Below are positions 3,932 through 50,133 of a stretch of 58,861 nucleotides of DNA, in pieces (the stretch's first letter is position 1; the number at the start of each line of letters is the position of its first letter). This DNA is from Parachlamydiales bacterium (GTDB lineage: Bacteria; Chlamydiota; Chlamydiia; Chlamydiales; JAEYWL01). The translations under genes and the position numbers were made by a program. The stretch spans positions 1 to 58,861 of the forward strand of contig JAGVLX010000080.1 of the NCBI GenBank assembly GCA_020054065.1, read 5' to 3'. The notes under the pieces are model-generated. The model was not told the origin of the DNA. It ran no database searches and saw only the letters and a program-made list of their open reading frames with translations.

Positions 3932-3933
3932 GA

Positions 3934-3978
3934 CAGGACTCACACGACATCCAGGACAAACAGGACCTTCACGACACA
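3934..3978 (+). repeat. 9-bp-period GAC element (single arm, 5 units)
   Basis: caggactca-cacgacatc-caggacaaa-caggacctt-cacgacaca, starting 2 nt after the HAD stop codon. Confidence 0.85.
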
Positions 3979-4074
3979 TTCGCCTGGCATTTGCCCAAAA
4001 AACCGGTTTGAAAAAAATTGAAAAGAAAATGAGAAGCACACTTACGCATGCTTCTCATTAAAGACGTTAAACTA

Positions 4075-4530
4075 TTAACGTGCGCAGGGATCGCAAGGAT
4101 CGCAAACTGGTGGGCAAGGATTGCACACTTGTTTGTAGTAGTAGTTTGGAACGTAGTCGCATTTTGTGTCGCAGATCGTTCTTGTGCAAGTTCTGCATTT
4201 TTGCACATCATAGTACTCTGGTTCATAGCGGCAGATGGTTTCGCAGTAGTAGTCTGGAACATAACGGCAGCGCTGAACTTCATAATACTTTGGAACTTGT
4301 CTGCAGCATCTTTCTGTATAGTATTGCGGCTCTTCTACACAACGGTAGGTGTTATAGTAGCAAGGCTCATAGTGGCAGAAGCATTGGCAGCCGTTTTCAT
4401 TGACTGGTCCAACTGGATGATCTGCTGGTGGTTGTTGATTATCGTATCCTTGATGTCCTTGATCAGCGTAGACTTGTTGACCCATCAAGGTACAACAAAA
4501 CATTAAACCTGCGAGAAAGAATTTTTTCAT
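4075..4530 (-). CDS. Secreted Cys/Tyr-rich protein with 12-aa repeats (candidate envelope protein)
   Basis: Signal peptide MKKFFLAGLMFCCTLMGQQVYA; seven 12-aa units, most matching CxxxPxYY; 21 Cys and 20 Tyr in 151 aa. Confidence 0.85.
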   Translation of the reverse strand: MKKFFLAGLMFCCTLMGQQVYADQGHQGYDNQQPPADHPVGPVNENGCQCFCHYEPCYYNTYRCVEEPQYYTERCCRQVPKYYEVQRCRYVPDYYCETICRYEPEYYDVQKCRTCTRTICDTKCDYVPNYYYKQVCNPCPPVCDPCDPCAR

Positions 4531-4716
4531 GGCTAACCCCCTGAACTAACGTTAAAAATTAAACAGGCATCTGATTTTTTTTACCGATCTATTCACTGGG
4601 AATCCTTTAAATCGGTTGATTACCTTAGTTATGGGTATGATATTTTTTTGATTTATGGTAAATGATTTTTTTAAATCTGGAAGGACGAGATCCAGAATAA
4701 CCTAATCATAAGTCAC

Positions 4717-5520
4717 TCAGTCATAAATGACTTTAACCAGAAAAAGTCCTTGTGGCGGAACAGACTGACCTGCCTTCCGTCGGTCGCGGCCATGAAAGAT
4801 ACCGGGGATCTCCTCCAGTTTGATCTTCTTAGATGCAGCTGCCAAAGCCGTCCCTACTAGGTTGCGGACCATTTTATAGAGAAAGCCGTCCGCTTCAAAT
4901 TCGAGGCGTACTCCTCCCTCCTCCGGAACGACATCCGCCCGAATCATCGTCCGCACGGGATCATGCGCTGCCACCCCTTCTGTCTGCGAATTGGCAAAGG
5001 CGGAAAAATCATGCGTTCCGAGATAGAGCTCCATGCAGCGTTTAAGCAACTCAAGATCAATTCGATAAATCGGTTTATATACCGTGTTTACTTTAAACGG
5101 ATCTTCAATCGGATCGAGATAGAGATGGTAGTGATAGATCTTCCTTTTTGCTGAATAGCGGGCATGAAAATCGGGCGGGACAGAGTGAATGCTTTTAATC
5201 CGGATATCAGTGGGCAGCAACCCGTTAGCCGCGCGTAAAAAGCGGTAAGCATCTACTGGACGATCGAAGGTGAAATGGGCAGTTTGCCCAAGCGCGTGGA
5301 CACCGGCATCGGTGCGTCCGGCGCCGACCAACTTTACTTCCCGCCGCAGGAACACTTGCAAGATCGATTCGATCTGCTCTTGAATGGATAAGCTGTTAGG
5401 CTGGATCTGCCATCCGCCGTAACGGGTTCCATCATAAGCAATGGTAATCAGATATTTATGGCTATCTTCTTCACCCATAAAGCTTATTGGAGAGAATGAC
5501 ACTGGCAAACTGCAGGTCAT
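4717..5520 (-). CDS. truA: tRNA pseudouridine(38-40) synthase TruA (start may be 5478)
   Basis: YDGTRYGGWQIQ, GAGRTDAGVHA, FHARYSA, FLYKMVR. Confidence 0.97.
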   Translation of the reverse strand: MTCSLPVSFSPISFMGEEDSHKYLITIAYDGTRYGGWQIQPNSLSIQEQIESILQVFLRREVKLVGAGRTDAGVHALGQTAHFTFDRPVDAYRFLRAANGLLPTDIRIKSIHSVPPDFHARYSAKRKIYHYHLYLDPIEDPFKVNTVYKPIYRIDLELLKRCMELYLGTHDFSAFANSQTEGVAAHDPVRTMIRADVVPEEGGVRLEFEADGFLYKMVRNLVGTALAAASKKIKLEEIPGIFHGRDRRKAGQSVPPQGLFLVKVIYD

Positions 5521-6175
5521 CCGGGGTGGTGACTTTTAAATTATAAGGCGACCCTTGGACGATTTTAACTGGCTTTCCCGCCAGCTCGGCGAGGGAAACA
5601 TCATCGGTGACCGTCAATTTTTGACGGTTCGCTTCGCTAAACCCTTGAAGTAAAATATCTTTATGCAACGCTTGCGGGGTTTGAATTTCGTGGAACTTTG
5701 AACGGTCGGGAGTCCTTAACACAAATGCATGGGCATCCGTTTCTTTGATAGTGAACTTCAGCGGCATCGCAGTGGCGGCGGCTCCGTGCGTTTCGGCAGC
5801 ATGCAACACCCGGTCCAACAAACTGTGGGTGATGAAAGGACGCGCTGCATCATGAATGCAGACCAGATTGCTCTTCGCAACCATTTTTAATCCGTTTTCA
5901 ACCGAGTCCTGCCGGCGCTGGCCCGGAGGGGCAAACCGAACCGACACTTGATGTCCCAGAATTTTGTCAGCGCTGGATTCAAACAATAAGAAATACGGTT
6001 CTTCACACACAACCACAAGCTCGCAAATATCGGGATGGGTAAGGAGCGTTTCAAAACTATGGATGGCCAGCGGCTTTTGGCCTAAAAGGAGGTATTGTTT
6101 GGGGATGTGGGAATGCATGCGGCTGCCGCTTCCACCCGCCAGAAGAATCGCGCTGCAGCGCTGGGGTTTGTTCAT
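5471..6175 (-). CDS. ispD: 2-C-methyl-D-erythritol 4-phosphate cytidylyltransferase
   Basis: LLAGGSGSRM..PKQY, RRQDSV, IHDAARP, QTPQ, TDD, NLKVTTPDDL. Confidence 0.95.
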   Translation of the reverse strand: MNKPQRCSAILLAGGSGSRMHSHIPKQYLLLGQKPLAIHSFETLLTHPDICELVVVCEEPYFLLFESSADKILGHQVSVRFAPPGQRRQDSVENGLKMVAKSNLVCIHDAARPFITHSLLDRVLHAAETHGAAATAMPLKFTIKETDAHAFVLRTPDRSKFHEIQTPQALHKDILLQGFSEANRQKLTVTDDVSLAELAGKPVKIVQGSPYNLKVTTPDDLQFASVILSNKLYG

Positions 6176-7158
6176 ATCGACCTCTTCAAACTTATAGACG
6201 TTATTTCAGGCACGGAGAACCATCGGAAAGGGAGGGCGCTTCCGACTCCCCGGTTAATATAAATCCACCGTGCATTCCGTTGCACAAGCCCCCTTCCATA
6301 CTCCTCGTTTTCGAGCAACGCAAAACGGTTACGCATCCACGGGATATTTACTTGAAACCCATGCGTATGTCCACTCAAAATCACGTGTCCAGGATAGCGG
6401 TCTAAGTAAGGGATGGCATCGGGATTGTGGACCAAAATCAAGCCAGGATAGCGGTTATCGTACCCTTTAAACGCTTCCTCTGGATCCATTTTTCCTAAGA
6501 CGTATTCGCCTAAACCGCATAAATTTAGTGCACTGTTTTTAAAAGGAATTAATTGATGCGCATTATGCAGAAGTTTAAACGGGCTTTTCTCGATCAGTTG
6601 CACCAGTTCTTGGTGTAATCCGGTTTGTCGGGCTTGTTCGGTAATGGTTTTCTTTAGAGGGGTTTCTTTCAGCAACCGTTTAAACCCGCTTAATAAGGTG
6701 GATTCATTCGCATCGATGACATCATATTCGCCGTTTGCATTGACCGAGGTAGCACGCGCATAATCATGGTTGCCGAGGATGGCAAAACAACCGAGCGGAG
6801 CATGAAATCCATTAAGGAACTTTTGCAGCCGCTCCCGATCTTCAAGCTGCGCATAGCAAATAAAATCGCCGGTAAACACAATCAAATCGGGTTTTTGATT
6901 CTGGATCCGAGCTTGGATCTTATTTAAAAATCGGTCGGACAAGGCGTGATGTAAATGCAAGTCGCTGAATTGGACAATATGCAGCGATTCCAGTTCACGC
7001 GGAAGGTCTTTAATGGGAAGATTCAGCTGCGTGGTCTGCAGCAAGTTCGGTTCGATAAAACGGGGCCAAATGCCCACCAGGGAGGCGATGCACCATAAAT
7101 CCCAGAGGGTGTGCCCAGCGTATGAGATGAAGCTCTGTTTAATTCGACGTTGTTCCAT
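6172..7158 (-). CDS. Metallophosphoesterase (YkuE/YaeI-like)
   Basis: SDLH, TGDF, GNHD, HNPD, SGHTHG motifs. Confidence 0.9.
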   Translation of the reverse strand: MEQRRIKQSFISYAGHTLWDLWCIASLVGIWPRFIEPNLLQTTQLNLPIKDLPRELESLHIVQFSDLHLHHALSDRFLNKIQARIQNQKPDLIVFTGDFICYAQLEDRERLQKFLNGFHAPLGCFAILGNHDYARATSVNANGEYDVIDANESTLLSGFKRLLKETPLKKTITEQARQTGLHQELVQLIEKSPFKLLHNAHQLIPFKNSALNLCGLGEYVLGKMDPEEAFKGYDNRYPGLILVHNPDAIPYLDRYPGHVILSGHTHGFQVNIPWMRNRFALLENEEYGRGLVQRNARWIYINRGVGSALPFRWFSVPEITSISLKRSI

Positions 7159-7159
7159 A

Positions 7160-7324
7160 AATTACCACCGAGCCACTGAGACCACTGGAAATTACCACTG
7201 AGCCACTGAGATCATTGAGAAGGTATGAGATTGAGATAAGGAGAACCGTTTTCCCTTCTGATCATACAGTTCATCTCAGTTATCTCATATATTCTCAATG
7301 ATCTCAGTGGCTCAGTGGTGAATT
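7160..7324. repeat. CACTGAG-type periodic hairpin element
   Basis: Tandem CCACTGAG units; 7194..7221 is the perfect reverse complement of 7292..7319 (28 bp). Confidence 0.85.
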
Positions 7325-7373
7325 ACTAACGATTTTAGCAGGTTTAGCGGTAGAAATAAATGAAAATAGAAGC

Positions 7374-7409
7374 GCCGAACGGGGGAAGTTGAGTCAGTCC
7401 GCGTTCGGC
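7374..7409 (-). terminator. Possible intrinsic terminator downstream of the SWIB gene
   Basis: GCCGAAC...GTTCGGC stem followed by a T-rich tract on the minus strand; loop is long, so weak. Confidence 0.35.
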
Positions 7410-7428
7410 ACGATGAGATCCAAGAAAA

Positions 7429-7719
7429 TTAGCTCAGGTGTTTTGACACTTTGCCTGGCATTTCAAGCATGTCAATTTCTCTATCGATAGAAATTCCAAA
7501 CACTTTTGCCAAAGTCGCGTCGGCTTTGATTTTACGTTTGTTGGTTTTGGATTGAAGGTTGTGTTTTTTGATGTAGTCCCAGAGTTTCTTTGTCACTTCC
7601 GTACGCGGCATTGGACCACGACCGACCACAGCAGCGAGAGTTTCGCTAATCTGTACAGGCTTTTGAAGCGCAGATGTGCTCTTTTTTTTGCTGGCTGTGC
7701 TACTTTTTGTTGCTGGCAT
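7429..7719 (-). CDS. SWIB/MDM2 domain protein (chlamydial type)
   Basis: PRTEVTKKLWDYIKKHNLQ..NKRKIKADATLAKVFG; Lys-rich N-terminus. Confidence 0.92.
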   Translation of the reverse strand: MPATKSSTASKKKSTSALQKPVQISETLAAVVGRGPMPRTEVTKKLWDYIKKHNLQSKTNKRKIKADATLAKVFGISIDREIDMLEMPGKVSKHLS

Positions 7720-7971
7720 AGTTGCTCCTTTATGGGTTAACTCACATACGTTCGATGTAGAGCTAAGGCTCCACTTTGTTCGTCATAAGGGATTTTTTAG
7801 CCTTCTTGTCATTTTAGTGCAAAACATTTATGACGCTGAAGACGGCATTTCCCTAGAGGATAATTCATATCTTACTGAATAGCAATAAGATAATTCGATT
7901 ATAACCGTTTAATTAAATTTCTGGTAGTTTTATGAACACATTTCCAATAACCCTGAAACCCTATTGTACCC

Positions 7972-10164
7972 ATGGCTGTCACACCCCGCATACCCCTCTC
8001 AGAACGTATCCAGAAGCTATCCCAGACTGTTAAGGAATTCCTTGAGACCACTAGTCCGTTTGAAAAAATTGAAATTCTCAACAATTTATCTGAGGTCCAG
8101 GAGTACCTGAAAGGGCACTCGGCGCTCAGCGATGCCATCGAAGGCCTGCCGACCGAGGGCGAGTTGGCTTTGAAATCGATTATCGCCATCGGAGAAGAAC
8201 CGATCCTCTTCCAAGGACTAGATGAACAAGCTTTGGCGAGTCCGGAGTTCAATCTTTTTTTGGGACAGCTGTTGGATGTGGAGAAATCGTATGACACAAT
8301 CGGCGGGATCATTGGATATCATCTGACTGTTTTAAAATTGATTATCGAAAACAATGAAGCTGGCTGTCAGATGGATCATGCCGTGCGCTACTCCAAACCA
8401 GAGGGATTGAATTTGGCCGAGGATAGCGCAGAAATGCGCCAGGCGGTCATCGATGGCCTCGTTAATTTGCCGCAGCTCGCCACCTTTTATCCTGTCGGAG
8501 GCGCCGGCGACCGTTTGATGCTGAAAGATGAAGAGACCGATGAAATGCTGCCCGCTGCGCGGTTGCAATTTGCCGGCAGAACTTTATTGGAGACCAATTT
8601 TCGGGATTTGCAAGGACGTGAATATTTGTATTACAAAGTGTTTGGCAAGCAGCTGTTAACCCCAGTTGCCATGATGACCTCGCACGAGAAAAACAACCAT
8701 GCACATATCGTCAGTATTTGCGAGCATAAGCGGTGGTTCGGGCGGCCGCAGCATTCGTTTTTCCTTTTCATTCAGCCGTTGGCGCCGGTGATCACCAAAG
8801 AGGGACATTGGTCGTTAAAAGCGCCTCTACACCTGAACTTAAAGCCAGGCGGTCATGGAGTGATTTGGAAGCTTGCACACGATGCTGGGGTATTCGAGTG
8901 GCTTAAAACGTTAAACCGATCCAAGGGAATCGTCAGGCAAATCAACAATCCCATTGCAGGAACCGACAACGGAATTTTAGGATTGATTGGCGTTGGATGT
9001 CAAACGGGAAAGAGCTTTGGGTTTGCGTCATGCGACCGTTTGATTCATGCTGCGGAAGGGATGGATGTCTTGGTCGAACGCAAGCAAGAGAGCGGTTATG
9101 AATACTGCATCTCCAATATCGAATATACGGAATTTACTAAAAAAGGATTGGAAGATGTTCCGGAATCTTCCGACAGCCCCTATTCCGCTTTTCCGGCCAA
9201 CACCAACTTGCTTTTTTTTGACATTGCAGCTGTGAATGAGGCTGTCAAACATAATCCGCTGCCCGGCATGGTTTTAAATCTGAAAAACAAAGCCATTTTT
9301 TTGGATCGCGATGGCACGCGTTCCGAGATAGAGGCCGGCCGACTGGAAACAACGATGCAAAATATCGCGGATAGCTTTGCCGATGTATTTACTGAACCGA
9401 TCCATCATGAAACCTATCAAAAATTGCGCACATTTTTAACTTACAATCAGCGCAGCAAAACCATCTCGGTCACGAAGAGAGTATATACTCCGGGAAAACC
9501 CGCCCATGAAACCCCTGAAAACAGTTTTTACGATTATCAAACGAATAACCGCGTTCTGTTGACCGATCACTGTGGCTTTCAAGTCCCCGCTCAAATTTCT
9601 TTAGATGCCTATTTAAAAGATGGACCGCCCCTTATTTTTTTATTCCACCCTGCCCTTGGGCCATTGTGGAGCATCATCGGCCAGAAAGTGCATGGCGGGC
9701 GTCTGGCGCCTAAAGCGGAGATGCAGCTGGAGATTGCAGAACTGGATGTGAAAAATCTGGATCTAGATGGGAGCCTTTACATCCGTGCTCAAGCCGTAAT
9801 GGGTGAAAAAAATACCCAAGAGCTTTTGCGTTACAGTGAAATGTGCGGCAAGTGTGAATTAATCAATGTCACCATTAAAAACAAAGGGATTGATTGGGAA
9901 CGGAGCCTTCCTTATTGGAAGACGCAATACACCTATCATGAAGCGTTGAAGATCGTGCTGAAAGGCACGGGCGAATTTTATGCCGAAAACGTCACTTTCA
10001 ACGGCAACCATCTGATTCAGGTGCCTGACGGCGTACGGATGACCGCCTTTGAAGAGAATGGAGTTTTGCAGTTCAAATCAGAAAAAATAACCAAGCCAAC
10101 CTGGTTTTGGAAGTACGCGATCACCGACGATAAGCGGATTCAATTAACAAAAGTAAAAGTTTAA
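7972..10164 (+). CDS. UTP--glucose-1-phosphate uridylyltransferase-like protein (long, plant UGP3-like form)
   Basis: YPVGGAGDRL nucleotide-binding loop, FIQPLAP, KPGGHGVIWKL, NIEY, FPANTN; 730 aa. Confidence 0.75.
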   Translation: MAVTPRIPLSERIQKLSQTVKEFLETTSPFEKIEILNNLSEVQEYLKGHSALSDAIEGLPTEGELALKSIIAIGEEPILFQGLDEQALASPEFNLFLGQLLDVEKSYDTIGGIIGYHLTVLKLIIENNEAGCQMDHAVRYSKPEGLNLAEDSAEMRQAVIDGLVNLPQLATFYPVGGAGDRLMLKDEETDEMLPAARLQFAGRTLLETNFRDLQGREYLYYKVFGKQLLTPVAMMTSHEKNNHAHIVSICEHKRWFGRPQHSFFLFIQPLAPVITKEGHWSLKAPLHLNLKPGGHGVIWKLAHDAGVFEWLKTLNRSKGIVRQINNPIAGTDNGILGLIGVGCQTGKSFGFASCDRLIHAAEGMDVLVERKQESGYEYCISNIEYTEFTKKGLEDVPESSDSPYSAFPANTNLLFFDIAAVNEAVKHNPLPGMVLNLKNKAIFLDRDGTRSEIEAGRLETTMQNIADSFADVFTEPIHHETYQKLRTFLTYNQRSKTISVTKRVYTPGKPAHETPENSFYDYQTNNRVLLTDHCGFQVPAQISLDAYLKDGPPLIFLFHPALGPLWSIIGQKVHGGRLAPKAEMQLEIAELDVKNLDLDGSLYIRAQAVMGEKNTQELLRYSEMCGKCELINVTIKNKGIDWERSLPYWKTQYTYHEALKIVLKGTGEFYAENVTFNGNHLIQVPDGVRMTAFEENGVLQFKSEKITKPTWFWKYAITDDKRIQLTKVKV

Positions 10165-10230
10165 TGGACGATATGGACTAAATGGACGATATGGACGTCC
10201 ATGCCGTCCATTTAGTCCATATCGTCCATT
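10163..10230. repeat. 9-bp-period ATGGAC hairpin filling a convergent junction
   Basis: 10163..10187 is the perfect reverse complement of 10206..10230 (25 bp); units atggacgat/atggactaa. Confidence 0.9.
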
Positions 10231-15577: not shown

Positions 15578-15650
15578 ACAGGACCAGGACACACACGACT
15601 CACAGGACAAACAGGACCGGTGCTTGCGTCCTGAATGTCGTGAAACTCCA
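15578..15650 (+). repeat. 9-bp-period GAC element with imperfect right arm
   Basis: CAGGACCAGGACACACACGACTCACAGGACAAACAGGACC follows the GNAT stop; then GTCCTGAAT GTCGTG. Confidence 0.85.
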
Positions 15651-15728
15651 GGGTGTCCTCATCTAACCTTATTCCCCTTCACTTTTAAAAGCGGTTTTTT
15701 TAAACTTAATGCTCTTACTTAGACATTT

Positions 15729-21709: not shown

Positions 21710-21745
21710 CAGGACAAACAAGACTCACACGACATACAGGACGAG
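21710..21745 (+). repeat. 9-bp-period GAC element (single arm, 4 units)
   Basis: caggacaaa-caagactca-cacgacata-caggacgag, 6 nt after the cmk stop. Confidence 0.8.
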
Positions 21746-22959: not shown

Positions 22960-23023
22960 AAACAGGACCACGACAAACACGACCTACAGGACAAATATAT
23001 GTATCCTGTAGGTCGTGTCCTTT
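22960..23023. repeat. 9-bp-period GAC hairpin element
   Basis: AAACAGGACCACGACAAACACGACCTACAGGAC; perfect 15-bp stem 22977..22991 / 23004..23018. Confidence 0.85.
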
Positions 23024-23036
23024 AAAGGATTCATTT

Positions 23037-24755: not shown

Positions 24756-27472
24756 AGCGTTTCGTGATTGGAATCGATTTAGGGACAACCAATAGCTGCC
24801 TCTCTTATCTAAATCTCGAGAAAGGGACGATCCATAGCGTTGAAATTCCTCAGTTGACGGGCGCTGGTGAAGTAAAAACTTCCCCTATGCTACCTTCATG
24901 TTGTTATCTGGCTGCTCCGCATGAGTGGAAACAAGGCGCACTAGACCTGCCCTGGAAAAATGCGTCTATAAGCGATTTTATCGGCAAGCTGGCACGCGAC
25001 CGCGGCGGACAAGTGCCGACCCGTTTGGTGCAATCAGCAAAAAGTTGGCTGTGCCATGGAGCAGCCAATCGACGCGAGCGGATTTTGCCACTCGAGGCGG
25101 CAGAAGAAGAGCGGCGGATAAGTCCGGTGGAAGCAAGCGCAAAAATTCTCGCGCATTTGAAAGCAGCCTGGTGTCATCTCATCGATGATTTTGATGAACA
25201 TGATGTGGTGCTAACCGTTCCAGCGTCTTTTGACGAAGTCGCCCGTAATCTTACGATCGAAGCCGCGCAGCAAGCGGGATATCAACGGCTGACCCTATTA
25301 GAAGAGCCGCAAGCGGCTTTCTACAGCTGGATGGCACATCACTGCAAAGAGCTCGCCCGGATGCCCTCCGGCGCAATCATCCTGGTATGCGACATTGGCG
25401 GAGGCACTACCGACTTCAGTTTAATTGAGGTGACGGGAACCGATGCAGATAAAGAGTTCAGACGGCTTGCAGTCGGTAATCATTTGCTGCTAGGCGGAGA
25501 TAACATCGACCGCGCCATTGCGCACTTTTTGGAACCGCAATTCAATCTAGAACTCAATACAACTCAATGGCTGCAACTCGTGCAGCAAAGCCGATACGTG
25601 AAAGAACAAGCATTAGGCGCTGCGCAAGGCGAACTTAGTATCACCTTGCAGGGCTCGGGGAACAAAGTGGTCGGCAATACTCTGCGCTTAGAAGTCGACC
25701 GCAATGCCATCAAACAGCTGGTCATGGAAGGATTTTTTCCCTATCAAGATTGGGAAGAGGCGATCGTGCTTAAACGCACGCATGGAATTAAAACGTTGGG
25801 ACTGCCTTATGAAGAGGAGCCATCAATCCTCAAGCATCTGGCGCATTTTTTAAATCAGCACCGCCACAATATCCAGAATAAATGGCCAAGTTACATTTTA
25901 TTTAATGGCGGCACCCTTAAGCCGCTTATCCTACAGCAAACGATTGTGCAGGCGCTCGAAAAATGGTCGCAACAGGCGGTCACCGTGCTTCAAAGCACAA
26001 GCCTCGATTTAGCGGTGGCGCACGGCGCAGCGTATTACGGCGGAACCCGCGCGGGCTATGGCGTTAAAATCAAAGGGGGCACAGCGCGCGCCTGTTACTT
26101 GGAAATTGAAACACTGGAAGGCAATGGGCTAGTGAAAAAAGCCCTTACCCTGATTCCAAGAGGCGCTGAAGAGGAGTACTGCTACAAACCCGATCAACTC
26201 TTTCACCTGCGGGCGAATCAGCCTGTCTCGTTCCATGTGCTGACCTCACATACACGCCTTTCCGATGCTCCGGGAACATTAATCGACATGAATGAAACGG
26301 AAATGCATGCGTTGCCTCCGATCCATACTCTGCTGCGTTATGGCAAAAACCATCACGAATCGCTCCCGGTCAAAATGGAAGCCGCGTTAACTCCCCTAGG
26401 CACCATCGAATTAGCCTTGCAATCAGCCGCCACCTCGCACCGCTGGAAGCTGGAATTTCAGCTGCAAAGCGTGGAAGGGCATGTGATGGCAAACGAACAA
26501 GGTGTCTCTGTCCAGCAAGATGAATTGGTCGATCAAGAAGTATTAGAGAAAGGGATCGGAGTAATTGAAGGAATCTTCAAGACGGGTAAGGTAAAACCGC
26601 AAGAAAGTTATAAAGCGCTGGAGCTGGCTTTGCAAAAAGAGCGCTTAGAATGGCCTCCTAGCTTATTACGAGGATTGTGGAGCCCGCTGCTTCAATGCGC
26701 AAGTGAACGTAAGCGTTCTTCCGAATTGGAATCTCGTTGGTGGAATTTAGCGGGATTTTTCTTACGGCCTGGATGTGGATATCCGCTGGATGACCATCGC
26801 TTAAAAGAGTTATGGAAAATTGTTTTAGCGGAACAGAACGCTCCCAAACCCGCCGACGTGCAGTTGCAGCAGTGGATTTGCTTCCGGCGAATCGCTGGCG
26901 GACTCAATAAGGGACAGCAGAATCAACTCGCGCATAGCTGGCAGGGTTCCTTATATGGAAAAAATGGCGGATTGGTAGAAAGTAAAAACAAAAATGAAGC
27001 TTACGCGTTTTCAGAAAAAATTCGTGCATTAGCCGCTTTTGAGCTGATAGAGCCAGCCATGAAGATCAAGCTAGGGAATGCCCTGCTGAAAAAAGTCTTG
27101 GAAGGTTCCGGCACCGCTGCAGAGTATTGGTCCTTAGGACGGATCGGCGCTAGGCAGTTACTATCGGGTTCTATGACCCAAGTAGTGCCTAAGCCGATTT
27201 GTGAGGAGTGGCTGCATGCCATTGCCGATCGATACAGTCAGCTAGATCCTGCGTGGCTTGGTTATTTGATCAGTCAAATGGCCCGCAAAACCGAACAACG
27301 GGAGCACCATCTTTCCGCAAGCTTAACACAGCGTTTGATTGAAATTGCCAAGCAGTTGCCCGAACAAGAGCACTTAATGGAGTTATTGACAACCCCTCAA
27401 AGATTAACTCAAAAAGAGCAAGAACAGTTATTCGGGGAAAAATTGCCAACCGGACTTTTCCTAAACGTGTAA
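24752..27472 (+). CDS. Hsp70-family protein with extended C-terminal domain (DUF3731-like); not canonical DnaK
   Basis: GIDLGTTNS, VPASFD, LLEEPQAAFY, DIGGGTTD; C-terminal WWNLAGFFLRPGCG and YWSLGRIGAR; 906 aa. Confidence 0.85.
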   Translation: MKRFVIGIDLGTTNSCLSYLNLEKGTIHSVEIPQLTGAGEVKTSPMLPSCCYLAAPHEWKQGALDLPWKNASISDFIGKLARDRGGQVPTRLVQSAKSWLCHGAANRRERILPLEAAEEERRISPVEASAKILAHLKAAWCHLIDDFDEHDVVLTVPASFDEVARNLTIEAAQQAGYQRLTLLEEPQAAFYSWMAHHCKELARMPSGAIILVCDIGGGTTDFSLIEVTGTDADKEFRRLAVGNHLLLGGDNIDRAIAHFLEPQFNLELNTTQWLQLVQQSRYVKEQALGAAQGELSITLQGSGNKVVGNTLRLEVDRNAIKQLVMEGFFPYQDWEEAIVLKRTHGIKTLGLPYEEEPSILKHLAHFLNQHRHNIQNKWPSYILFNGGTLKPLILQQTIVQALEKWSQQAVTVLQSTSLDLAVAHGAAYYGGTRAGYGVKIKGGTARACYLEIETLEGNGLVKKALTLIPRGAEEEYCYKPDQLFHLRANQPVSFHVLTSHTRLSDAPGTLIDMNETEMHALPPIHTLLRYGKNHHESLPVKMEAALTPLGTIELALQSAATSHRWKLEFQLQSVEGHVMANEQGVSVQQDELVDQEVLEKGIGVIEGIFKTGKVKPQESYKALELALQKERLEWPPSLLRGLWSPLLQCASERKRSSELESRWWNLAGFFLRPGCGYPLDDHRLKELWKIVLAEQNAPKPADVQLQQWICFRRIAGGLNKGQQNQLAHSWQGSLYGKNGGLVESKNKNEAYAFSEKIRALAAFELIEPAMKIKLGNALLKKVLEGSGTAAEYWSLGRIGARQLLSGSMTQVVPKPICEEWLHAIADRYSQLDPAWLGYLISQMARKTEQREHHLSASLTQRLIEIAKQLPEQEHLMELLTTPQRLTQKEQEQLFGEKLPTGLFLNV

Positions 27473-27479
27473 TTGCAGA

Positions 27480-27497
27480 CAGGACTTTCAGGACGTT
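27480..27497 (+). repeat. Short GAC element remnant (2 units)
   Basis: caggacttt-caggacgtt, 7 nt after the Hsp70-like stop. Confidence 0.55.
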
Positions 27498-27570
27498 TGT
27501 CGAGAATTATCATCTCAATCCATTGATTTTAAGTTGGTTAAAAGATCGCCGCAACTTAAACATTTTAAAC

Positions 27571-31406: not shown

Positions 31407-31509
31407 AAGGACAAACGACAAAACGACCCAAAAGACCAAAACGACATAAAGGACCAAAATGACATATTTTTTAGTCCTTTTGGTCCTTTGGGTCGTTCTG
31501 TCGTTGATT
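31407..31509. repeat. 9-bp-period AACGAC/AAGGAC element filling the SNF2/dnaA convergent junction
   Basis: aacgaccca-aaagaccaa-aacgacata-aaggaccaa-aatgacata, then inverted gtcctttt/ggtcctttg/ggtcgtt units. Confidence 0.85.
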
Positions 31510-34371: not shown

Positions 34372-34399
34372 TTCAAGCTAAGGCGTCTATTCATTTTGA

Positions 34400-34463
34400 C
34401 AGGACAAACACGACATCCAGGACGTACAGGACAATTTTTTGTCGTGTGTCCTGGTCCTGTTTA
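34400..34463. repeat. 9-bp-period GAC element at the gnd convergent junction
   Basis: caggacaaa-cacgacatc-caggacgta-caggacaat; right arm GTCGTGTGTCCTGGTCCTGTTT abuts the gnd stop. Confidence 0.85.
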
Positions 34464-34464
34464 A

Positions 34465-41510: not shown

Positions 41511-41516
41511 GGATTC

Positions 41517-43252: not shown

Positions 43253-43271
43253 CCTGTTAACGGAAGCACGC

Positions 43272-43667
43272 ATGGCACGCATCAATTGGCTTGAGACAAT
43301 GCGCTGGAACGACGATCAGCTGGAGGAGCTGCGGTTCCTTGGGTATGCGTATTTGCGGCAAGGCAAGTACGACATCGCCATAAGCTTTTTTGAAGCGCTG
43401 TGCGTTCTAGAGCCCGATAGTGCGTATGATGCCCAAACCTTGGGTGCGCTCTATTTACAGATGGGCAATCCCGCCAAAGCCTTAAAATATTTCGACCGGG
43501 CGTTAAAATTAGACGCCGATCATTCGCCTACTCTTCTGAATTTGGCTAAAGCGTTGTTTATGCTAGGCAAAAAAGAGGAAGGGTTAAAACTCGCCAACGT
43601 CTTGAAAGAAGAGTTGAATCCAAGTATTGCGAATTACGCCAAGGCGTTAATTCTGGCGTATAGTTAA
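43272..43667 (+). CDS. TPR protein, type III secretion chaperone-like (CT274-like); longest ORF from 43212
   Basis: LRFLGYAYLRQGKYDIA..FEAL, TLGALYLQMGN, LLNLAKALFMLG TPR-like helices. Confidence 0.8.
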   Translation: MARINWLETMRWNDDQLEELRFLGYAYLRQGKYDIAISFFEALCVLEPDSAYDAQTLGALYLQMGNPAKALKYFDRALKLDADHSPTLLNLAKALFMLGKKEEGLKLANVLKEELNPSIANYAKALILAYS

Positions 43668-43690
43668 ACAGGACATTATTTATCCTGTTT
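43666..43690. repeat. Minimal GAC hairpin at a convergent junction
   Basis: AAACAGGA(C)...TCCTGTTT between two TAA stop codons. Confidence 0.6.
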
Positions 43691-44629: not shown

Positions 44630-44689
44630 CTAATATCCTTTTGTTTATTAGATGGTATATTTTATATTAAAAATAAAATAAATTCAATG

Positions 44690-45868
44690 TTATTGTTTAG
44701 ATAATAATTTCTTTAAAGACTCACAGACACGGGTCACATCTTCTTCTGTAAGCCGGCATTGGAAAGGAAGAGCAAGGGCTTGCGAATAAAACAGCTCGGT
44801 TTGCGGGAAGTATTCACTTAAATCACCCGCTTTTTTAACAAAGAACGGATGTTTATAAACGGGAATATAGAGAACTTGGGAGCCGATATTTGCTTCGAGG
44901 AGCTTTTTCATGAGATCGGCGCGTGTGATTTTGAATCGGCTGAAGTCGATTTGCACCACAAAGAGATGGTAGTTGCTGAACTCATCCCAACGGGGATCCG
45001 ATAGCGTGATTCCTGCGACATTTGCAAGTTGGGAGCGATAATGCTTCACCAAATCAGCGCGGTGTTGAATAAATTGATCTAATCGCTTCAACTGTGAAAG
45101 GCCTAAAGCAGCTTGAAATTCAGTAAAATTGAAGTTTCCCGTCACTGCTTGAATTTCATACCACCAAGGATTTTGGGGGCAGTGTATTTTCTCTGGATTG
45201 CGTTCAATGCCATTGTTGCGGTATAGGAGCAATTTTTGATAAAGCTCCTCATCATTAGTCAACACCATCCCTCCCTCGCCGGTGGTGATGTGCTTGTTGG
45301 GATGGAAGCTAAACACCGTCATATGGCTCCAGGCGCACGATCCAACCAGTTCTCCGGAAGGATAGCGTGAGCCCAACGCATGGGCGGCATCTTCAATGAC
45401 AATCGTATCAGGGTTTTTGATGAGAGCATCGATGCGACGCATATCGAGAGGGATGCCGGCATAGTGGACCGCCATGAAGATTTCCCGTCCGCGGCTGGAT
45501 GGGCGGTTGAGGTTAAACTCCAGGAGATTCATATCCAAATTTCCGGTCGTGCGATCAAGATCGATAAAAACCGGCGTCGCATCAGCATGAATGGCGCCCG
45601 TCAAGGAGCCGATGAATGTATTGGGAGTCGTCACAATCCGGTCATTTTGATTAGTCCCAGCGGCAAAATAAGTGGCATCAAGCGCGCTGGTCCCGTTAGT
45701 AAAGGCGACACCGTATTTTGCTCCGCAGTAATCAGCGATTTTTTGCTCGAACTCGCGTACGAGAGGTCCACGGGTGATCAGCTCACCGGTTAACGCATGG
45801 GCAACCGCTTCCGTATCTTCCGGAGAGATCGACTGGCAGGCATAGGGTAAAAAGGGAGGTTTACTCAT
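44690..45868 (-). CDS. DegT/DnrJ/EryC1/StrS PLP-dependent sugar aminotransferase (PseC-like)
   Basis: LPYACQSI, GPLVREFE, EDAAHALG, SFHPNKHITTGEGG. Confidence 0.9.
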   Translation of the reverse strand: MSKPPFLPYACQSISPEDTEAVAHALTGELITRGPLVREFEQKIADYCGAKYGVAFTNGTSALDATYFAAGTNQNDRIVTTPNTFIGSLTGAIHADATPVFIDLDRTTGNLDMNLLEFNLNRPSSRGREIFMAVHYAGIPLDMRRIDALIKNPDTIVIEDAAHALGSRYPSGELVGSCAWSHMTVFSFHPNKHITTGEGGMVLTNDEELYQKLLLYRNNGIERNPEKIHCPQNPWWYEIQAVTGNFNFTEFQAALGLSQLKRLDQFIQHRADLVKHYRSQLANVAGITLSDPRWDEFSNYHLFVVQIDFSRFKITRADLMKKLLEANIGSQVLYIPVYKHPFFVKKAGDLSEYFPQTELFYSQALALPFQCRLTEEDVTRVCESLKKLLSKQ

Positions 45869-45961
45869 AGTCGAGAGAAGATTACCACAACGGTTATTTG
45901 GATTCTAGATCGTAATCATGCGATTTGCTACCCTACGTGATTAATTTAAGGCTTAATTCTC

Positions 45962-47560
45962 ATGAAAGAGCATACCCTATTTTCCGAATACCTTTCCCAA
46001 ACGCAGAAATTGACCATCGCTTTGGACCGCGGCGAACATCCGCTTCACGATCTACTCGACTGGGTGGATCAGCAAATGCCCTTGTTTCCTTCGATGCCCG
46101 CCTATCAACATTTTTTTAAAGCGGAGAAGGCGTTTTACAAAGGAATGTATGAGCAGGCATTAAAAAGTTACTTGCTCGCGCGTGAGATCCCTGAATTCCC
46201 TTTCTTCTGCTACCGCGCTTCTGCGTATGTTTCCCACAAAATGGGACAAAAAGCGAAAGCGCTGCAATTTACTCAAAAAGCGCTGACGATCCGCCCTAAT
46301 GACTATGTCACATTAAAGATGTTGCAGCAGCTTAACCGAAACGAATCCTCAAACACCTCTGCAAGCCTTGAAACAGAAACGCCGCCGCCGTTTGACGATC
46401 GGGAACTCGAGGAGTTGAATCATATTTTTCAATCCACTTCCGAACCGACGGAAGCGCTGTTCAGTGCTGAGACCTCCGCAGTTGTTCCACCTTTGGAATT
46501 CTTGCCACCCAAAACTGTGCCAGCGCAGATTCAGCGCGCGATTGAAAAAGAACACACCGAGATGGTGGAGGAGTACCGCTTACGGATCCAATCACGAGCT
46601 CATCCATTGGATCATTTTTGCATGGTGCTGCAAAACTGGAATCTCTGGAGCCGCAATGAAATCCCCCTTTTAGCTACCTCTGAAGCAGTGCGCGCGTTTA
46701 GAAGCGGAGTGTTTTTAAAATGGAAAGGGATAGGGATTGCGATCAACCCTGGACGCGGGTTTTTGGAACAACTGCATATCCATGGGTTGTTCGTCACGGA
46801 TATCGATATCGTTATCGTGACTCGCAACGAACCGGAAGCCTATACCGATTTAACCGCACTCTATCACTTGAACTACCAATTAAACAAAGACGCCAAAGAG
46901 CTGCATGTCCTCCAATGCTATTTAACCCAGCCCGTGTATCAACGCACGCATCGGGAGTTGCGCCCCAATTTCAAACAGGAAAAAGGAACGCTGCATACGC
47001 TCGATCTATTTTCAGATGCGCCCCATGGCGAAAAAGCGATCTTAGCCGCTGGCATCCAGCTGCACTATTTTGCGTTAGGCTCGGAACATCTTGGGTGTGT
47101 CTTGGAATTGTCCGAGCATGAACATCAATGCAAGATTGGGTTGCTGTCTGACGCGCCTTGGGATCCGCAAGCAGTAGACCCTTTTGCGGCATGCGATGTG
47201 TTGATTGGGTCTATTGGAAAGACGAACGGCGATGATTTTAATTTCCGGCGTGCTCCCTCCACCCACTTAGGGTTGTCAGGACTCAAGCAGGCTGCTCAAT
47301 TGACTAAACCTAAGCTGCTTATTGCGTGCGAACTGGATGGAAGTTATGGCGATATCCGGTACGATGCCCTTCGCAAATTGCGGCATGAGGTGAACGGCTC
47401 GATTTTACCGGGTGAATCCGGGTTATGTGTGGATTTATATACATTAGCAGTAAAACCTCCAGATTTGGACCGCTTTTACCCGGTCCATGAAATCAAGCTC
47501 TTGAATGGGGCTGAGCCCTTTGCGCCGCTAAGATTCACTACCGCCGATCAGATTTTATAA
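45962..47560 (+). CDS. Hypothetical protein: N-terminal TPR-like region plus degenerate metallo-beta-lactamase-like region
   Basis: AEKAFYKGMYEQALKSY...ALQFTQKALTIRPND (TPR-like); IAINPGRGF..DIDIVIVTRNEPEAY resembles an MBL core lacking HxHxDH. Confidence 0.55.
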   Translation: MKEHTLFSEYLSQTQKLTIALDRGEHPLHDLLDWVDQQMPLFPSMPAYQHFFKAEKAFYKGMYEQALKSYLLAREIPEFPFFCYRASAYVSHKMGQKAKALQFTQKALTIRPNDYVTLKMLQQLNRNESSNTSASLETETPPPFDDRELEELNHIFQSTSEPTEALFSAETSAVVPPLEFLPPKTVPAQIQRAIEKEHTEMVEEYRLRIQSRAHPLDHFCMVLQNWNLWSRNEIPLLATSEAVRAFRSGVFLKWKGIGIAINPGRGFLEQLHIHGLFVTDIDIVIVTRNEPEAYTDLTALYHLNYQLNKDAKELHVLQCYLTQPVYQRTHRELRPNFKQEKGTLHTLDLFSDAPHGEKAILAAGIQLHYFALGSEHLGCVLELSEHEHQCKIGLLSDAPWDPQAVDPFAACDVLIGSIGKTNGDDFNFRRAPSTHLGLSGLKQAAQLTKPKLLIACELDGSYGDIRYDALRKLRHEVNGSILPGESGLCVDLYTLAVKPPDLDRFYPVHEIKLLNGAEPFAPLRFTTADQIL

Positions 47561-47627
47561 AACACAGGACCAAGACAAACACGACACACAGGACAAACAG
47601 GACCAAAAAAATTTGTCCTGGTCGTTT
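47561..47627. repeat. 9-bp-period GAC element filling a convergent junction
   Basis: CAGGACCAAGACAAACACGACACACAGGACAAACAGGACC plus a short right arm GTCCTGGTCGT. Confidence 0.85.
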
Positions 47628-47984
47628 TTAGGGGTGTTTAGGGAGGACGATCGGCTGAATGGTAAAAAATGACCAAAACGTCTGCTGATGACTCATGAAG
47701 TCGTTCATGTTAACGAAAAACTCAGCATTTAACATGTTGTCTTTCGAAAATAGATGACCAAGCGGGAATAGCAAGATTCCGGTCAGTTCCAAGGCAAGCG
47801 GGAGCAACGGCCAGGCGGTGCGATGCTTGATACACTGCGGCACAACCATCACGATATCAAAGAGAGTAAAAAAGGGTGTCACGACCACCGAAACAAGAAG
47901 GGCTATTGGCCATTTAGCTAGCGACTTTCCCTGCCATTCGTTTAATTGAACATTGATATAGCTGCTCGTCGCTAATACCTTCAT
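47628..47984 (-). CDS. Small hypothetical membrane protein
   Basis: Two hydrophobic stretches; ATGA overlap with the aroDE stop. Confidence 0.6.
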   Translation of the reverse strand: MKVLATSSYINVQLNEWQGKSLAKWPIALLVSVVVTPFFTLFDIVMVVPQCIKHRTAWPLLPLALELTGILLFPLGHLFSKDNMLNAEFFVNMNDFMSHQQTFWSFFTIQPIVLPKHP

Positions 47985-49471
47985 AGACTTGCCTCTAATA
48001 CATCTTTGATAATTTGATACACACGTTTTTTATCTAATTGGCCATCACTCCATAACGCAAACTGTTGAGCCGCTTGGCGCGCAAACATTTCCTGTCCATA
48101 TATCACCTTGCACTGTTTTTTGAGAGCTTCTTTTAATAACTTAGTTTCGCGCGGCTTCGTGATAATATCCATCACCACAGCGCCGGCAATCAAATCTTGG
48201 CATGCAATCGGCATGGCATCAATCTCAGGCAGCATGCCGACCGAAGTCGTATTCACTAAAATATCGTAGGGGCCGATATCTTGCAGATCTTCCAATAATC
48301 CGGCTTTCGCCTGAAACTCCGTGGCGAGTTGCTCAGCACGCGCTAGGGTGCGGTTGAGAATCGTGACCGCAGCTCCCCGCTTCACCGCTTCGAATACGAC
48401 CGCGCGGCTCGCTCCGCCGGCACCCAAAACCACCATCTGTTTGCCTTGAACCGGAATCACCTCTTCCAGGGCATCTAACGCTCCCTTGCCATCGGTGTTA
48501 TATCCGGTGAACGCCTCATCTTTTTTCACTAATGTATTGGAAGCGCCGATTTTTTCAACCTCTTCGGAAACCGCATCCAAATCGAGTAAGATCTCTTCTT
48601 TAAGCGGTACAGTCACACTAAATCCAGCAAACGGCAGTTCCCGCACCAGTTGCATGAACCCTTCAAGCTCCAAGTCATGCACTGCGATTTTTATATAGAC
48701 GCCATTATAACTCAATTGAGTGAATACTTGATTGTGGGTTAGATGTGACGGACTTTGAACAACGATACCGCCCAGTAGCGCATAAACTTTGGTCTGAGGA
48801 TTGAGGTCTTTGTAGTGGTAGATGTGCTGCAATTCGTGAAGAGTGAGCTGTCCGGGGGCGGTTTTTTCTGATTCATGGCCGACGGCAAAGTCGGCAAAGC
48901 TGCCGACAACCGGTCCTAGAACGCGCGTCGGGAGACCATATTCGCCCATGCAGAGGCCAGATAGGGCCACACCCTGCTTCGCATGCCGTTGGACAAAGGC
49001 CAGCATCGTGAGGGCATCGGACGCGTTGGCGGCAGGAACGGCGATTTTATATCCATCAGCTGGAACGGTCATCATAGAAGCCAGAAGGTCATCCAAGCTT
49101 TTTGGCATGCTATGGAAGTCATGATATGAATAAATGATTTTGACATCGGGATAGTCGAGCAGCAGCTGGCTGATGATCGTAATGGGGGTGCCGAACTCGA
49201 TATCTAGATAGTCAGGGCCAATGGCAGCAGCTTGATTAAGCAACGCATACAAATCGGAATCGGATTCTGCAAAGGCCCCCCCCTGTTTCTTAGAGCGGAT
49301 TGTAAAGAGGACAGGCAATTCGGCGATTTCCAAGAGGGCGGCTAGTTCGATAGGATCGATGGTGTTCCATCGATCCAGCCTAAATTCAAACGCGTCAGCA
49401 TAACCGCGCGTTTCTTCCATCTGCCTTTCAACATCAGCAAGGGTGGGACCCGAAATGCAAGCGAATAACAT
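47981..49471 (-). CDS. aroDE: Bifunctional type I 3-dehydroquinate dehydratase / shikimate dehydrogenase
   Basis: N-terminal EFRLD..SYHDF (AroD); C-terminal SPSHLTHN, SVTVPLK, GASNT, GYNTDG, LGAGGAS (AroE). Confidence 0.93.
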   Translation of the reverse strand: MLFACISGPTLADVERQMEETRGYADAFEFRLDRWNTIDPIELAALLEIAELPVLFTIRSKKQGGAFAESDSDLYALLNQAAAIGPDYLDIEFGTPITIISQLLLDYPDVKIIYSYHDFHSMPKSLDDLLASMMTVPADGYKIAVPAANASDALTMLAFVQRHAKQGVALSGLCMGEYGLPTRVLGPVVGSFADFAVGHESEKTAPGQLTLHELQHIYHYKDLNPQTKVYALLGGIVVQSPSHLTHNQVFTQLSYNGVYIKIAVHDLELEGFMQLVRELPFAGFSVTVPLKEEILLDLDAVSEEVEKIGASNTLVKKDEAFTGYNTDGKGALDALEEVIPVQGKQMVVLGAGGASRAVVFEAVKRGAAVTILNRTLARAEQLATEFQAKAGLLEDLQDIGPYDILVNTTSVGMLPEIDAMPIACQDLIAGAVVMDIITKPRETKLLKEALKKQCKVIYGQEMFARQAAQQFALWSDGQLDKKRVYQIIKDVLEASL

Positions 49472-49483
49472 AGTGGCGCCTAA

Positions 49484-50014
49484 TTAGGATTGAAGTCCTA
49501 ATATAGCAAGAATACGATTTTCGACATCATGTTCTGATTGGGAATCGATTTTGACTTCATATTCTTGAAGCGCATGGTAGAGGGGTTGCCTTTCCTCATA
49601 AATTTGCTGGAAAATCTTTTGAAACTCCTGTTTTTCCATATACGCTGGCAGCGTAGGTTCGGCTAAGAGGCGTTGTTTGACAAGGTTTTTTTCGGTGTTT
49701 AGAAAAACCAAAGTTCCAAGATGCATGAGCACGTTACGGCTATATTCATCTAAGATCGTGCCCCCGCCGACGGCAATGATGGCTTTATCCAGCTTTTGAA
49801 GGGAACCTACCACCTGGCGTTCGAGCTGTCTGAAGAAATCGGCGCCCTCGCTTTGGTAGATCATGCGGAAGGAGAGTTCCTTGCCAGTTTGCTGTTTATA
49901 AAGATCCTCAATTAATTGGTCGGTATCGTAGAAGCTCCACCCTAAAAGCGTTGAAAGACGCTTTCCCACGTACGTTTTACCGCACCCTTTATGTCCAAAC
50001 AGAATGATATTCAT
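49484..50014 (-). CDS. aroK: Shikimate kinase (longest ORF from 50062)
   Basis: ILFGHKGCGKT P-loop, DTD, FFRQLE, VGGG, ERQPLY. Confidence 0.9.
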   Translation of the reverse strand: MNIILFGHKGCGKTYVGKRLSTLLGWSFYDTDQLIEDLYKQQTGKELSFRMIYQSEGADFFRQLERQVVGSLQKLDKAIIAVGGGTILDEYSRNVLMHLGTLVFLNTEKNLVKQRLLAEPTLPAYMEKQEFQKIFQQIYEERQPLYHALQEYEVKIDSQSEHDVENRILAILGLQS

Positions 50015-50094
50015 AACAACGTAATGATAACACAACAGTTTAAATAAAAGATTAACATTCAAAAAAGGTTTTTAAAAGAAAATACGATGCCAAT

Positions 50095-50133
50095 GTCCTG
50101 TTTGTCCTGTGTGTCGTGTTTGTCCTGGTCCTG
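50095..50133 (-). repeat. 9-bp-period GAC element (single arm) directly after the smc stop
   Basis: Minus strand reads TAA-CAGGACCAGGACAAACACGACACACAGGACAAACAGGAC; 38/39 identical to 47565..47603. Confidence 0.88.

Follow-up and report, generated by a model that had tools for sequence, protein, structure and literature searches.

What are the structured repeats that follow stop codon after stop codon in a contig of a Parachlamydiales bacterium, and where do they come from? The stretch in question, referred to below as the window, is the whole DNA analysed here, 58,861 nucleotides (nt) making up contig JAGVLX010000080.1 of GenBank assembly GCA_020054065.1 (contig C31 in our numbering, in which contigs are those of the window's own genome unless another is named); the genome is a draft of 2.39 Mb with 46% GC in 144 contigs. 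A sequence-only reading had described in the window 11 elements built from 9-nt units with an invariant GAC, all of which are present with their GAC in phase, and had taken them for a dispersed family resembling the repetitive extragenic palindromes (REPs) and biased to gene 3′ ends, a view that is borne out by the genome-wide distribution. In the model that we favor, and to which we assign a probability of about 0.6, these GAC elements are gene-less derivatives, of the kind of miniature inverted-repeat transposable elements (MITEs), of a selfish element resembling the intervening sequences (IVSs) of 23S rRNA, and act as RNA hairpins at transcript 3′ ends.

Abundance and anatomy of the GAC elements

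With an array defined as at least three GAC trinucleotides in phase at a 9-nt period, the genome holds 234 arrays, as compared with 12–20, or about 17, in locally shuffled sequence, an excess that is not seen for other trinucleotides; the genome-wide count that had been proposed as a check thus places the family far above the shuffles. The 211 arms of the family belong to three subfamilies and merge into 161 elements. Subfamily A (CA[G/C]GAC-AnA, 126 arms) has the outer end ACAGGACCAGGAC and subfamily B (AA[C/G]GAC-CnA, 61 arms) the outer end AAGGACAAACGACAAAACGAC, both of these ends being defined and common to scores of copies, while subfamily C comprises 24 arms of ATGGAC-nnn units; an example of a GAC-nonamer unit is CAGGACAAA. 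The base preceding GAC is C rather than G in 29% of the units, and the CACGAC and AACGAC units do not contain GGA. Unit order varies from copy to copy, and one array contains eight perfect CAGGACGTA units. Arm-to-arm co-linearity, considered as a possible trace of hairpin-templated repair, is by a crude method 0.50 within elements and 0.43 between them.

Hairpins are formed by 101 of the 161 elements (median −45 kcal/mol), with stems of 30–40 bp that have at most TTT behind them. In two-arm elements the order is GAC arm, loop, GTC arm in 50 cases and the reverse in none; with this polarity both strands read alike and the upstream gene always meets the GAC arm, which accounts for most of the rule, put forward in the sequence-only reading, that the GAC strand is always sense to the gene it follows. 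The rule does not extend to all copies, since at least three unpaired arms standing right after a stop are GTC-first (C118:6965, C82:4764 and C138:1185). Single arms had been noted beside the hairpins and do exist, but true ones are rare, 26 of the 161 elements being clearly unpaired and nine of those 26 lying at contig ends; few as they are, and not uniformly sense, they weaken the suggestion that the primary sequence matters as well as the stem.

Placement behind native stop codons

The gene set used for placement consists of codon-bias-scored open reading frame (ORF) calls (1862 genes, 85.5% of the genome coding), against which 92% of the family arms are intergenic. Of 276 convergent junctions, 68 (25%) carry an element, as do 68 of 1190 tandem ones (6%) and 8 of 253 divergent ones (3%), and when only gaps of 20–400 nt are counted the occupied share is 34–36%, 11% and 2%, respectively. 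The earlier statement that every convergent junction carries an element thus holds for the window, where all six (at 3932, 10165, 31407, 34372, 43668 and 47561, by our own gene calls) are occupied, but not for the genome, than whose average the window is richer.

A same-strand stop lies within −70 to +40 nt for 134 of the 211 arms, and in alignments the outer end is found mostly 0–5 nt past the stop, as where TAA is directly followed by CAGGACCAGGAC, AAGGACAAACGAC or ATGGACGAT. In tandem contexts the median distance is 11 nt from stop to element as against 62.5 nt from element to next start, and 49 of the 68 elements concerned are nearer to the upstream stop than to the next start (p = 3.6e-4). 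TAA, TGA and TAG are all seen before elements, with TAA dominant (most aligned rows, compared with 58% genome-wide), and the C-terminal tails of the abutted genes match the lengths of their orthologs as well as controls do, with no truncation. Because all three stop codons are used and the C-termini are intact, the elements follow native stops and do not supply them; an element-borne stop codon and a C-terminal truncation were both rejected on the tail lengths. The reading frame between stop and GAC shows a mild skew only (39/29/25, subfamily A).

The fold energy of the gaps is −0.37 kcal/mol/nt at convergent junctions, −0.21 at tandem and −0.17 at divergent ones. Canonical terminators are present at 4–9% of the gene ends of the genome versus 2% of the background, and at only 4–5% of the ends that bear an element. 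The identification of the elements as intrinsic terminators was rejected, the canonical forms being rare and not enriched at elements and the stems lacking a U-tract, a feature that the sequence-only reading had already found wanting.

Gene-bearing copies and the cargo protein

Each of the three subfamilies has a copy in this genome that carries a gene of the four-helix-bundle-suffix family, which bears out the earlier proposal to search for genes of this fold beside the motif. In the B-type copy (C75:19925-20580) the GAC arm is followed directly by the ATG of an intact ORF of 182 amino acids (aa; C75:19975-20523) and then by the GTC arm; the A-type copy (C26, ~6840-7515) has a frameshifted gene and an A-type 3′ GTC arm ending in GTCCTGGTCCTG, and the C-type copy (C26:486-857) consists of a C-type arm followed by a truncated gene. 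The C75 ORF scores above the profile cut-offs of TIGR04258 (73.9 bits, cut-off 40) and TIGR02436 (26.5 bits, cut-off 24) and below that of PF05635 (22.2 bits, cut-off 33.8). The structural model of its protein has a pLDDT of 91.8, and its best structural matches are 2gsc and 2rld of the S23p family and the Avd chains of the diversity-generating retroelement (DGR) complex 8ub7, the latter with a TM score of 0.71–0.72 on target length, while sequence similarity between Avd and the cargo protein is undetectable by phmmer. The loops of the gene-less B elements (GGACCAAAA...TTTTGGTCC) match the sequences that flank the gene, namely GGACCAAAAA before the ATG and TTTTTTGGTCC after the stop, which fits an origin of the gene-less form by internal deletion.

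Occurrence in other genomes and phyla

A protein search gave at least 8000 homologues of the cargo protein, of which the best 120 are 69–77% identical. At 62 of 80 homologous loci drawn from GTDB, which represent Chlamydiota, Bacteroidota, Ignavibacteria, Chlorobi, Planctomycetota, Chloroflexota and others, the four-helix-bundle-suffix gene has at least three in-phase GAC no more than 160 nt away, and the array density of 3.85/kb within this distance stands against 0.03/kb beyond 400 nt, a local enrichment of ~120-fold. The core common across phyla is S-GAC, S being G or C, with spacers that differ; as the spacers drift but this word does not change, the cargo protein, which is highly conserved, most likely recognises S-GAC repeated every 9 nt. 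Of 41 genomes belonging to the order, those that carry the gene are that of the window, G012 and G028, and arrays adjoin it each time, the one in G028 being a perfect 10-copy GACAACGTG array. The association of a four-helix-bundle-suffix gene with S-GAC nonamer arrays, which is found at these 62 loci, at C75 and C26, in G012 and in G028, is a class that is proposed here and is unpublished.

The downstream neighbor of the cargo gene is on the same strand in 51 of 65 loci. At several Bacteroidota loci (e.g. L023, L026, L034, L043 and L044) the suffix gene is seen in one recurring slot, after a gene ending in ...ELYK and before a gene starting with MSNI(S/G)G.IKSI.DIF, which suggests that insertion recurs at this site or that the position in an operon is conserved.

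Arrays without the gene have expanded in the genome of the window, in its sister genus (G001), in the Parachlamydiaceae metagenome-assembled genome (MAG) G048, in two other Chlamydiae MAGs and in Chlorobium ferrooxidans DSM 13031, the copy number rising steeply in some lineages only. The arrays of the sister genus have other spacers than those of the window's genome and an extra outer module, and those of G048, with 377 overlapping four-unit pattern matches, also abut stops. Chlorobium ferrooxidans has ~40 arrays, most of them single arms; their median distance past a same-strand stop is 44 nt, and they often lie behind a canonical terminator. Its arrays (L269–L298) end in ...AAGGACGAA, and several of them stand behind a conserved ~50-nt module (ATCTGTTnCGCGATTCGATTGCTTCGTTGGGCGGTGCTCGAAAAGAGATC); the organism is in culture, and another cultured carrier of a homologue of the cargo protein is Ignavibacterium album (IALB_0127). 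A separate observation comes from the sister genus, where a canonical four-helix-bundle gene (PF05635, 82 bits; C12:7160-7760 of G001, locus L005) has long inverted CTTGAT/CTTAAT hexamer arrays on its flanks, which suggests that different protein clades pair with different tandem units.

Turnover between strains and genera

A close relative, ~97% identical to the genome of the window, was recovered from a Logan assembly and compared at ~11 junctions, at four of which the element is kept. The element at window position 21710 is retained, that at 22960 is retained save for two substitutions and a 1-nt indel, and at 31407 substitutions cluster in the 3′ arm. At 27480 the relative has 24 nt more (CAGGAC and two nonamers; 6 + 9 + 9 nt), a unit-level indel between ACAGGAC repeats, and at C112:24790 the core of the palindrome is inverted, with an additional two-unit difference. 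Another repeat family occupies the same post-stop place at window positions 3932 and 47561, at C53:7964 and at C53:10785, the replacing families being a GGAT hairpin, CACAGAG octamers and an CCCGTGCC/CCATCCTATTACCC element; at 3932 the relative has the repeat CCCGTGCC...CCATCCTATTACCC, and at 47561 a CACAGAG-octamer array. Opposite window positions 34372-34464 it has a 1.1-kb indel (L262:3990-5215) with two additional ORFs, of 190 and 133 aa and without a recorded Pfam match, in a segment that also contains a canonical terminator (GGCGTCC-TTTT-GGACGCC-TTTTTT), a degenerate GAC remnant and REP hairpins. GAC arrays thus change by unit slippage, arm-to-arm inversion and wholesale replacement, much faster than the flanking genes diverge. 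Between the window's genome and the sister genus (468 ortholog pairs, 55% amino-acid identity), the gene ends occupied in both are three, with 1.6 expected (p = 0.2). We infer that the GAC elements are, or were, mobile.

In the relative, CCCGTGCC-type heptamer units followed by CCCCATCCTATTACCCATAAGTC were seen at L263:1617-1667 and L260:4056-4123, two post-stop places that have GAC elements in the window's genome, where this heptamer repeat has 11 loose matches. A search of the JGI metagenomes with alanine dehydrogenase as the query gave a best match only 69% identical, which is of no use for an empty-site comparison.

A model of the GAC elements and the evidence against it

In the model proposed here, the full element would consist of a GAC-nonamer arm, a four-helix-bundle-suffix gene (TIGR04258, with an S23p/Avd-like fold) and a GTC-nonamer arm, and would be of the same type as the IVS with an S23p gene in 23S rRNA, but placed in mRNA 3′ regions instead of rRNA. 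Its gene-less hairpins would have multiplied to ~160 copies in this chlamydial lineage, persisting only where an insertion is tolerated, that is, right after stops and above all between convergent genes, where transcripts of either strand would give the same 30–40 bp hairpin. Such a hairpin might work as a two-way RNA 3′-end structure, either as a barrier to exonucleases or read-through or as a site for RNase III, the gene of which (rnc) is present in the genome, and a two-way role of this sort is, as judged from sequence and predicted folding, the most likely one.

Several findings weigh against this model. The gene is inside the element in three copies only, as against ~158 gene-less ones, two of those three are damaged, the cargo protein is not a known transposase, and no enzyme that moves the elements was identified; there is also no reverse transcriptase in the window's genome or in most of the array-rich genomes examined that could do so. 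No truly empty site was found, and the flanks of 26 complete A-type elements contain no target-site duplication, being only A-rich, T-rich or stop codons. The assembly of the sister genus, which is 91% complete, contains ~70 or more arrays, and no four-helix-bundle-suffix gene was detected in it. In other phyla the cargo gene shows no preference for a same-strand upstream neighbor (37 vs 30), and its co-transcription with an upstream host gene was rejected for the lack of an orientation bias. The single arms behind canonical terminators in Chlorobium ferrooxidans are a poor fit to an RNA hairpin role in that organism, and the arrays there and in the sister genus stand further from stops. Finally, the model does not account for the anchoring at 0–5 nt from the stop, the GC-rich REPs of the same genome lying at a median of 76 nt from it. 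The CACAGAG octamer arrays are found genome-wide at a median of 13 nt past the stop, and because these abut stops and the GC-rich REPs do not, tight post-stop anchoring belongs to the tandem-unit hairpin class and not to the genome generally.

A wider version of the model is put forward more tentatively, as a possibility that we hold to be rather doubtful: the S-GAC palindromes and the four-helix-bundle-suffix protein might together represent an undescribed cross-phylum class of selfish elements, in which an Avd-like oligomer would read one unit per subunit, tandem-repeat families would compete for the post-stop landing pad, and the 23S IVS would be a special case. Competition for that landing pad would explain the different families at identical places in ~97% identical strains.

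Comparison with known systems

The S23p-bearing IVSs of 23S rRNA, known from Leptospira and Coxiella burnetii, are selfish elements with terminal inverted repeats and a stem cut by RNase III (28 bp in Coxiella), which are distributed sporadically, spread horizontally and exist also in gene-less hairpin versions (PMC4990558). The GAC elements have in common with them the terminal inverted repeats in a long stem, the small S23p/four-helix-bundle ORF enclosed by it, the sporadic occurrence, the horizontal spread and the gene-less hairpins. They differ in that all GAC copies adjoin protein genes, after the stops of which they stand, with no insertion in helix 9, 25 or 45 of 23S rRNA (three conserved 23S/16S rRNA motifs gave no match in the assembly of the window's genome), in arms made up of a variable number of tandem S-GAC nonamers, in their ~160 gene-less copies per genome and in a cargo of the 'suffix' clade (TIGR04258); RNase III cutting, which is known for the IVS stem, is here only a candidate.

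Short non-autonomous palindromes that are abundant in small genomes include the MITEs Correia/NEMIS of Neisseria and RPE of Rickettsia, and the hairpins of Correia transcripts can be processed by RNase III. The inverted repeats of a MITE are unique in sequence, its insertion leaves a target-site duplication, and it derives from a parent insertion sequence that encodes a transposase; the GAC elements resemble MITEs as short non-autonomous palindromes, but none of these features was found for them. A MITE with a transposase parent was rejected as an identity, there being no target-site duplication and the cargo being a four-helix bundle.

An Rfam search of the window returned tRNAs only, and no published description of the GAC-nonamer family was found in the literature that could be searched, nor a relevant match in the literature on TIGR02436, on the 'four helix bundle suffix' or on chlamydial repeats, in keeping with the earlier judgment that the family is undescribed.

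Alternative explanations

One account that dispenses with mobility regards the GAC elements as host-evolved cis elements, the lineage's own two-way terminators or mRNA stabilisers maintained by selection, whose likeness to the gene flanks would be secondary. The rarity of canonical terminators agrees with this, as do the highly structured convergent gaps, filled by one hairpin family or another, the abutting of native stops with unaltered protein ends, and the four junctions kept in the close relative. We nevertheless regard it as unlikely, in that occupied gene ends are not common to the sister genus beyond chance, close strains hold different families at the same place, gene-bearing copies exist and arrays flank the gene in many phyla, and the copy number explodes in some lineages only. 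The other account of this kind has the elements arise where they stand at gene ends, through slippage and fold-back copying rather than transposition, after the manner of the short tandemly repeated repetitive (STRR) sequences of filamentous cyanobacteria; any short seed behind a stop would thereby lengthen and turn palindromic. STRRs are dispersed intergenic tandem arrays of heptamer units, with several unit families per genome, and thus share with the GAC elements, whose unit is a nonamer, the short tandem unit, the intergenic position and the plurality of families; we know of no GAC/GTC-type hairpin rule, post-stop anchoring or cargo gene described for them. Slippage is indeed visible in the 24-nt unit indel between strains, and the perfect arrays of eight CAGGACGTA and, in G028, ten GACAACGTG units, the differing unit order among copies and the same post-stop habit of the CACAGAG octamers also speak for it. 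As an origin of the family it is nonetheless quite improbable, given the outer ends ACAGGACCAGGAC and AAGGACAAACGACAAAACGAC defined in scores of copies, the three discrete subfamilies each with a matching gene-bearing copy, and the same S-GAC word across phyla.

REPs, bacterial interspersed mosaic elements (BIMEs) and REPINs, known from enterobacteria and Pseudomonas together with REP-associated tyrosine transposases (RAYTs), are extragenic palindromes thought to affect mRNA ends (PMC3733652). The GAC elements are like them in being extragenic, palindromic, high in copy number, biased to 3′ ends and convergent junctions and variable between strains at fixed places, and the genome of the window has seven matches to Y1_Tnp (PF01797) and that of the sister genus three; these points speak for mobilization in trans by a RAYT-like Y1 transposase, one of the agents that the sequence-only reading had considered. 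We consider it very improbable and rejected a RAYT as the partner of the family: no GAC array lies within 4 kb of the six Y1 loci inspected in the window's genome, most of which are flanked by GC-rich REP-like hairpins of their own, the GTAG/CGTC head, rightly reported as absent, is not found in the unit or terminus consensus (CAsGAC / AAsGAC / ATGGAC), the arms are tandem nonamers of variable number rather than one palindrome of 20–40 bp, and the arrays co-occur across phyla with the four-helix-bundle-suffix gene. A further idea, which combines two origins and to which we attach a next to negligible probability, is that the arrays are binding sites of the CsrA/RsmA type, as the same reading had also suggested, or belong to a DGR-like retroelement in which a reverse transcriptase would work together with the Avd-like protein. 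Avd is an accessory protein of DGRs that binds nucleic acid and forms a pentameric, basic four-helix bundle; the predicted cargo protein has its fold (PDB 8ub7), and many units contain AGGA. CsrA sites were rejected, there being no match to PF02599 in the genomes of the window and the sister genus and the invariant part being GAC, not GGA, which CACGAC and AACGAC units lack. A retroelement or DGR part was rejected likewise, as no reverse transcriptase (PF00078) was found in the window's genome or in five other array-bearing ones (G012, G028, G041, G043 and G050), and the cargo gene is accompanied by no template/variable repeat pair.

The elements of the window

The window contains members of all three subfamilies in various states. 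Subfamily A provides three single arms, one of five units on the forward strand at 3934..3978, 2 nt past the stop (3931) of a HAD hydrolase gene, without a GTC partner (fold −9.5 kcal/mol, arm unpaired), one of four units, also forward, at 21710..21742, 6 nt past the stop of cmk (21703), and one on the reverse strand at 50095..50133, directly after the smc stop (50134-50136), its TAA being followed by CAGGACCAGGAC. To the same subfamily belong an imperfect hairpin at 15578..15660 with the outer end ACAGGACCAGGAC, 3 nt past the stop (15574) of a GNAT gene (−31 kcal/mol), a hairpin at 22960..23027 past the stop of the alanine dehydrogenase gene (22951), in which the palindrome runs on into TTTAAA flanks (−27.9 kcal/mol), and two asymmetric hairpins, one at 34397..34462 that ends 2 nt short of the convergent gnd stop (34465; −29.7 kcal/mol) and one at 47561..47627, with a five-unit GAC arm and a short GTC arm, that fills the convergent gap 47561-47627. 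Subfamily B (AAsGAC-CnA) is represented by a hairpin at 31407..31505 (−43.5 kcal/mol), between the stop of an SNF2 helicase gene (31406) and the convergent dnaA stop (31510), and subfamily C (ATGGAC) by a near-perfect hairpin of 65 nt at 10165..10229 (−49.3 kcal/mol), which fills the gap between the convergent stops 10164 and 10230. The smallest copies are a two-unit remnant (ACAGGACTTTCAGGAC) on the forward strand at 27479..27498, 6 nt past the stop at 27472, and a mini-hairpin with one unit per arm (ACAGGAC...ATCCTGT) at 43668..43690, which fills a convergent gap of 23 nt and is, at −5.4 kcal/mol, the weakest member.

Other repeats of the genome

Further hairpins with tandem-unit arms are found in the window at 7173-7322, 55806-55938, 57359-57384 and 58752-58830; they comprise ACCACTGAG/CTCAGTGG units (−79 kcal/mol), CACAGAG-type octamers (−64 and −75 kcal/mol) and one CACAGAG-type single arm at a gene 3′ end. 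A 22-nt tandem duplication (TGTGCTACTTTTTGTTGCTGGC twice) lies at 7675-7717, in or beside a weak 96-aa ORF call on the minus strand (7429-7719). Elsewhere in the genome, similar hairpins are formed by a family of nonamers that have GAT where the units described above have GAC (CAGGATAAC / CCAGGATAG; C8:4129-4310, C26:38604-38848 and C15:2570-2765, and, in the close relative, L260:1246-1320), a family that stands in for the GAC element at one junction of that relative, and hairpins with GCAAAGnn octamer arms (ATCGCAAAGAAGCAAAGGAGCAAAG...) occupy convergent junctions at C2:6580-6656, C19:3352-3427 and C30:32188-32335.

The six RAYT-like Y1 loci (C75:31022-31366, C71:1055-1387, C55:34-380, C72:5-241, C102:2800-3087 and C134:15145-15408), several with CACAGAG octamers nearby, look like classical REP/RAYT systems that coexist with the GAC family as separate sets. 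An abundant REP-like palindrome, TTTGGAGTGCGGTAACTTGTTACCGCACTCCAAA, has 495 half-site matches (e.g. C1:12625-12762 and C41:1149-1187) and at convergent junctions frequently lies inside larger palindromes; it shows no tight stop anchoring. Gene fragments of PDDEXK_3, a nuclease of the GxxExxY type, are present at C116:7049-7359, C23:25-189 and C49:7-111, two of them at contig ends.

Implications

If the model is correct, the S23p or '23S rRNA intervening sequence' proteins would belong to a far wider family that colonises mRNA 3′ ends as well and may attain hundreds of copies per genome, and S-GAC at a 9-nt period would be a concrete candidate ligand for a protein family of at least 8000 homologues without known function. 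The rapid swap of one repeat family for another at a given place behind a stop calls for an explanation of its own. For compact chlamydial genomes the results suggest that gene ends are marked by fast-evolving, interchangeable hairpins and not by classical terminators, and gene ends marked in this way affect operon prediction, the annotation of 3′ untranslated regions and genome assembly, in which contigs break at the repeats.

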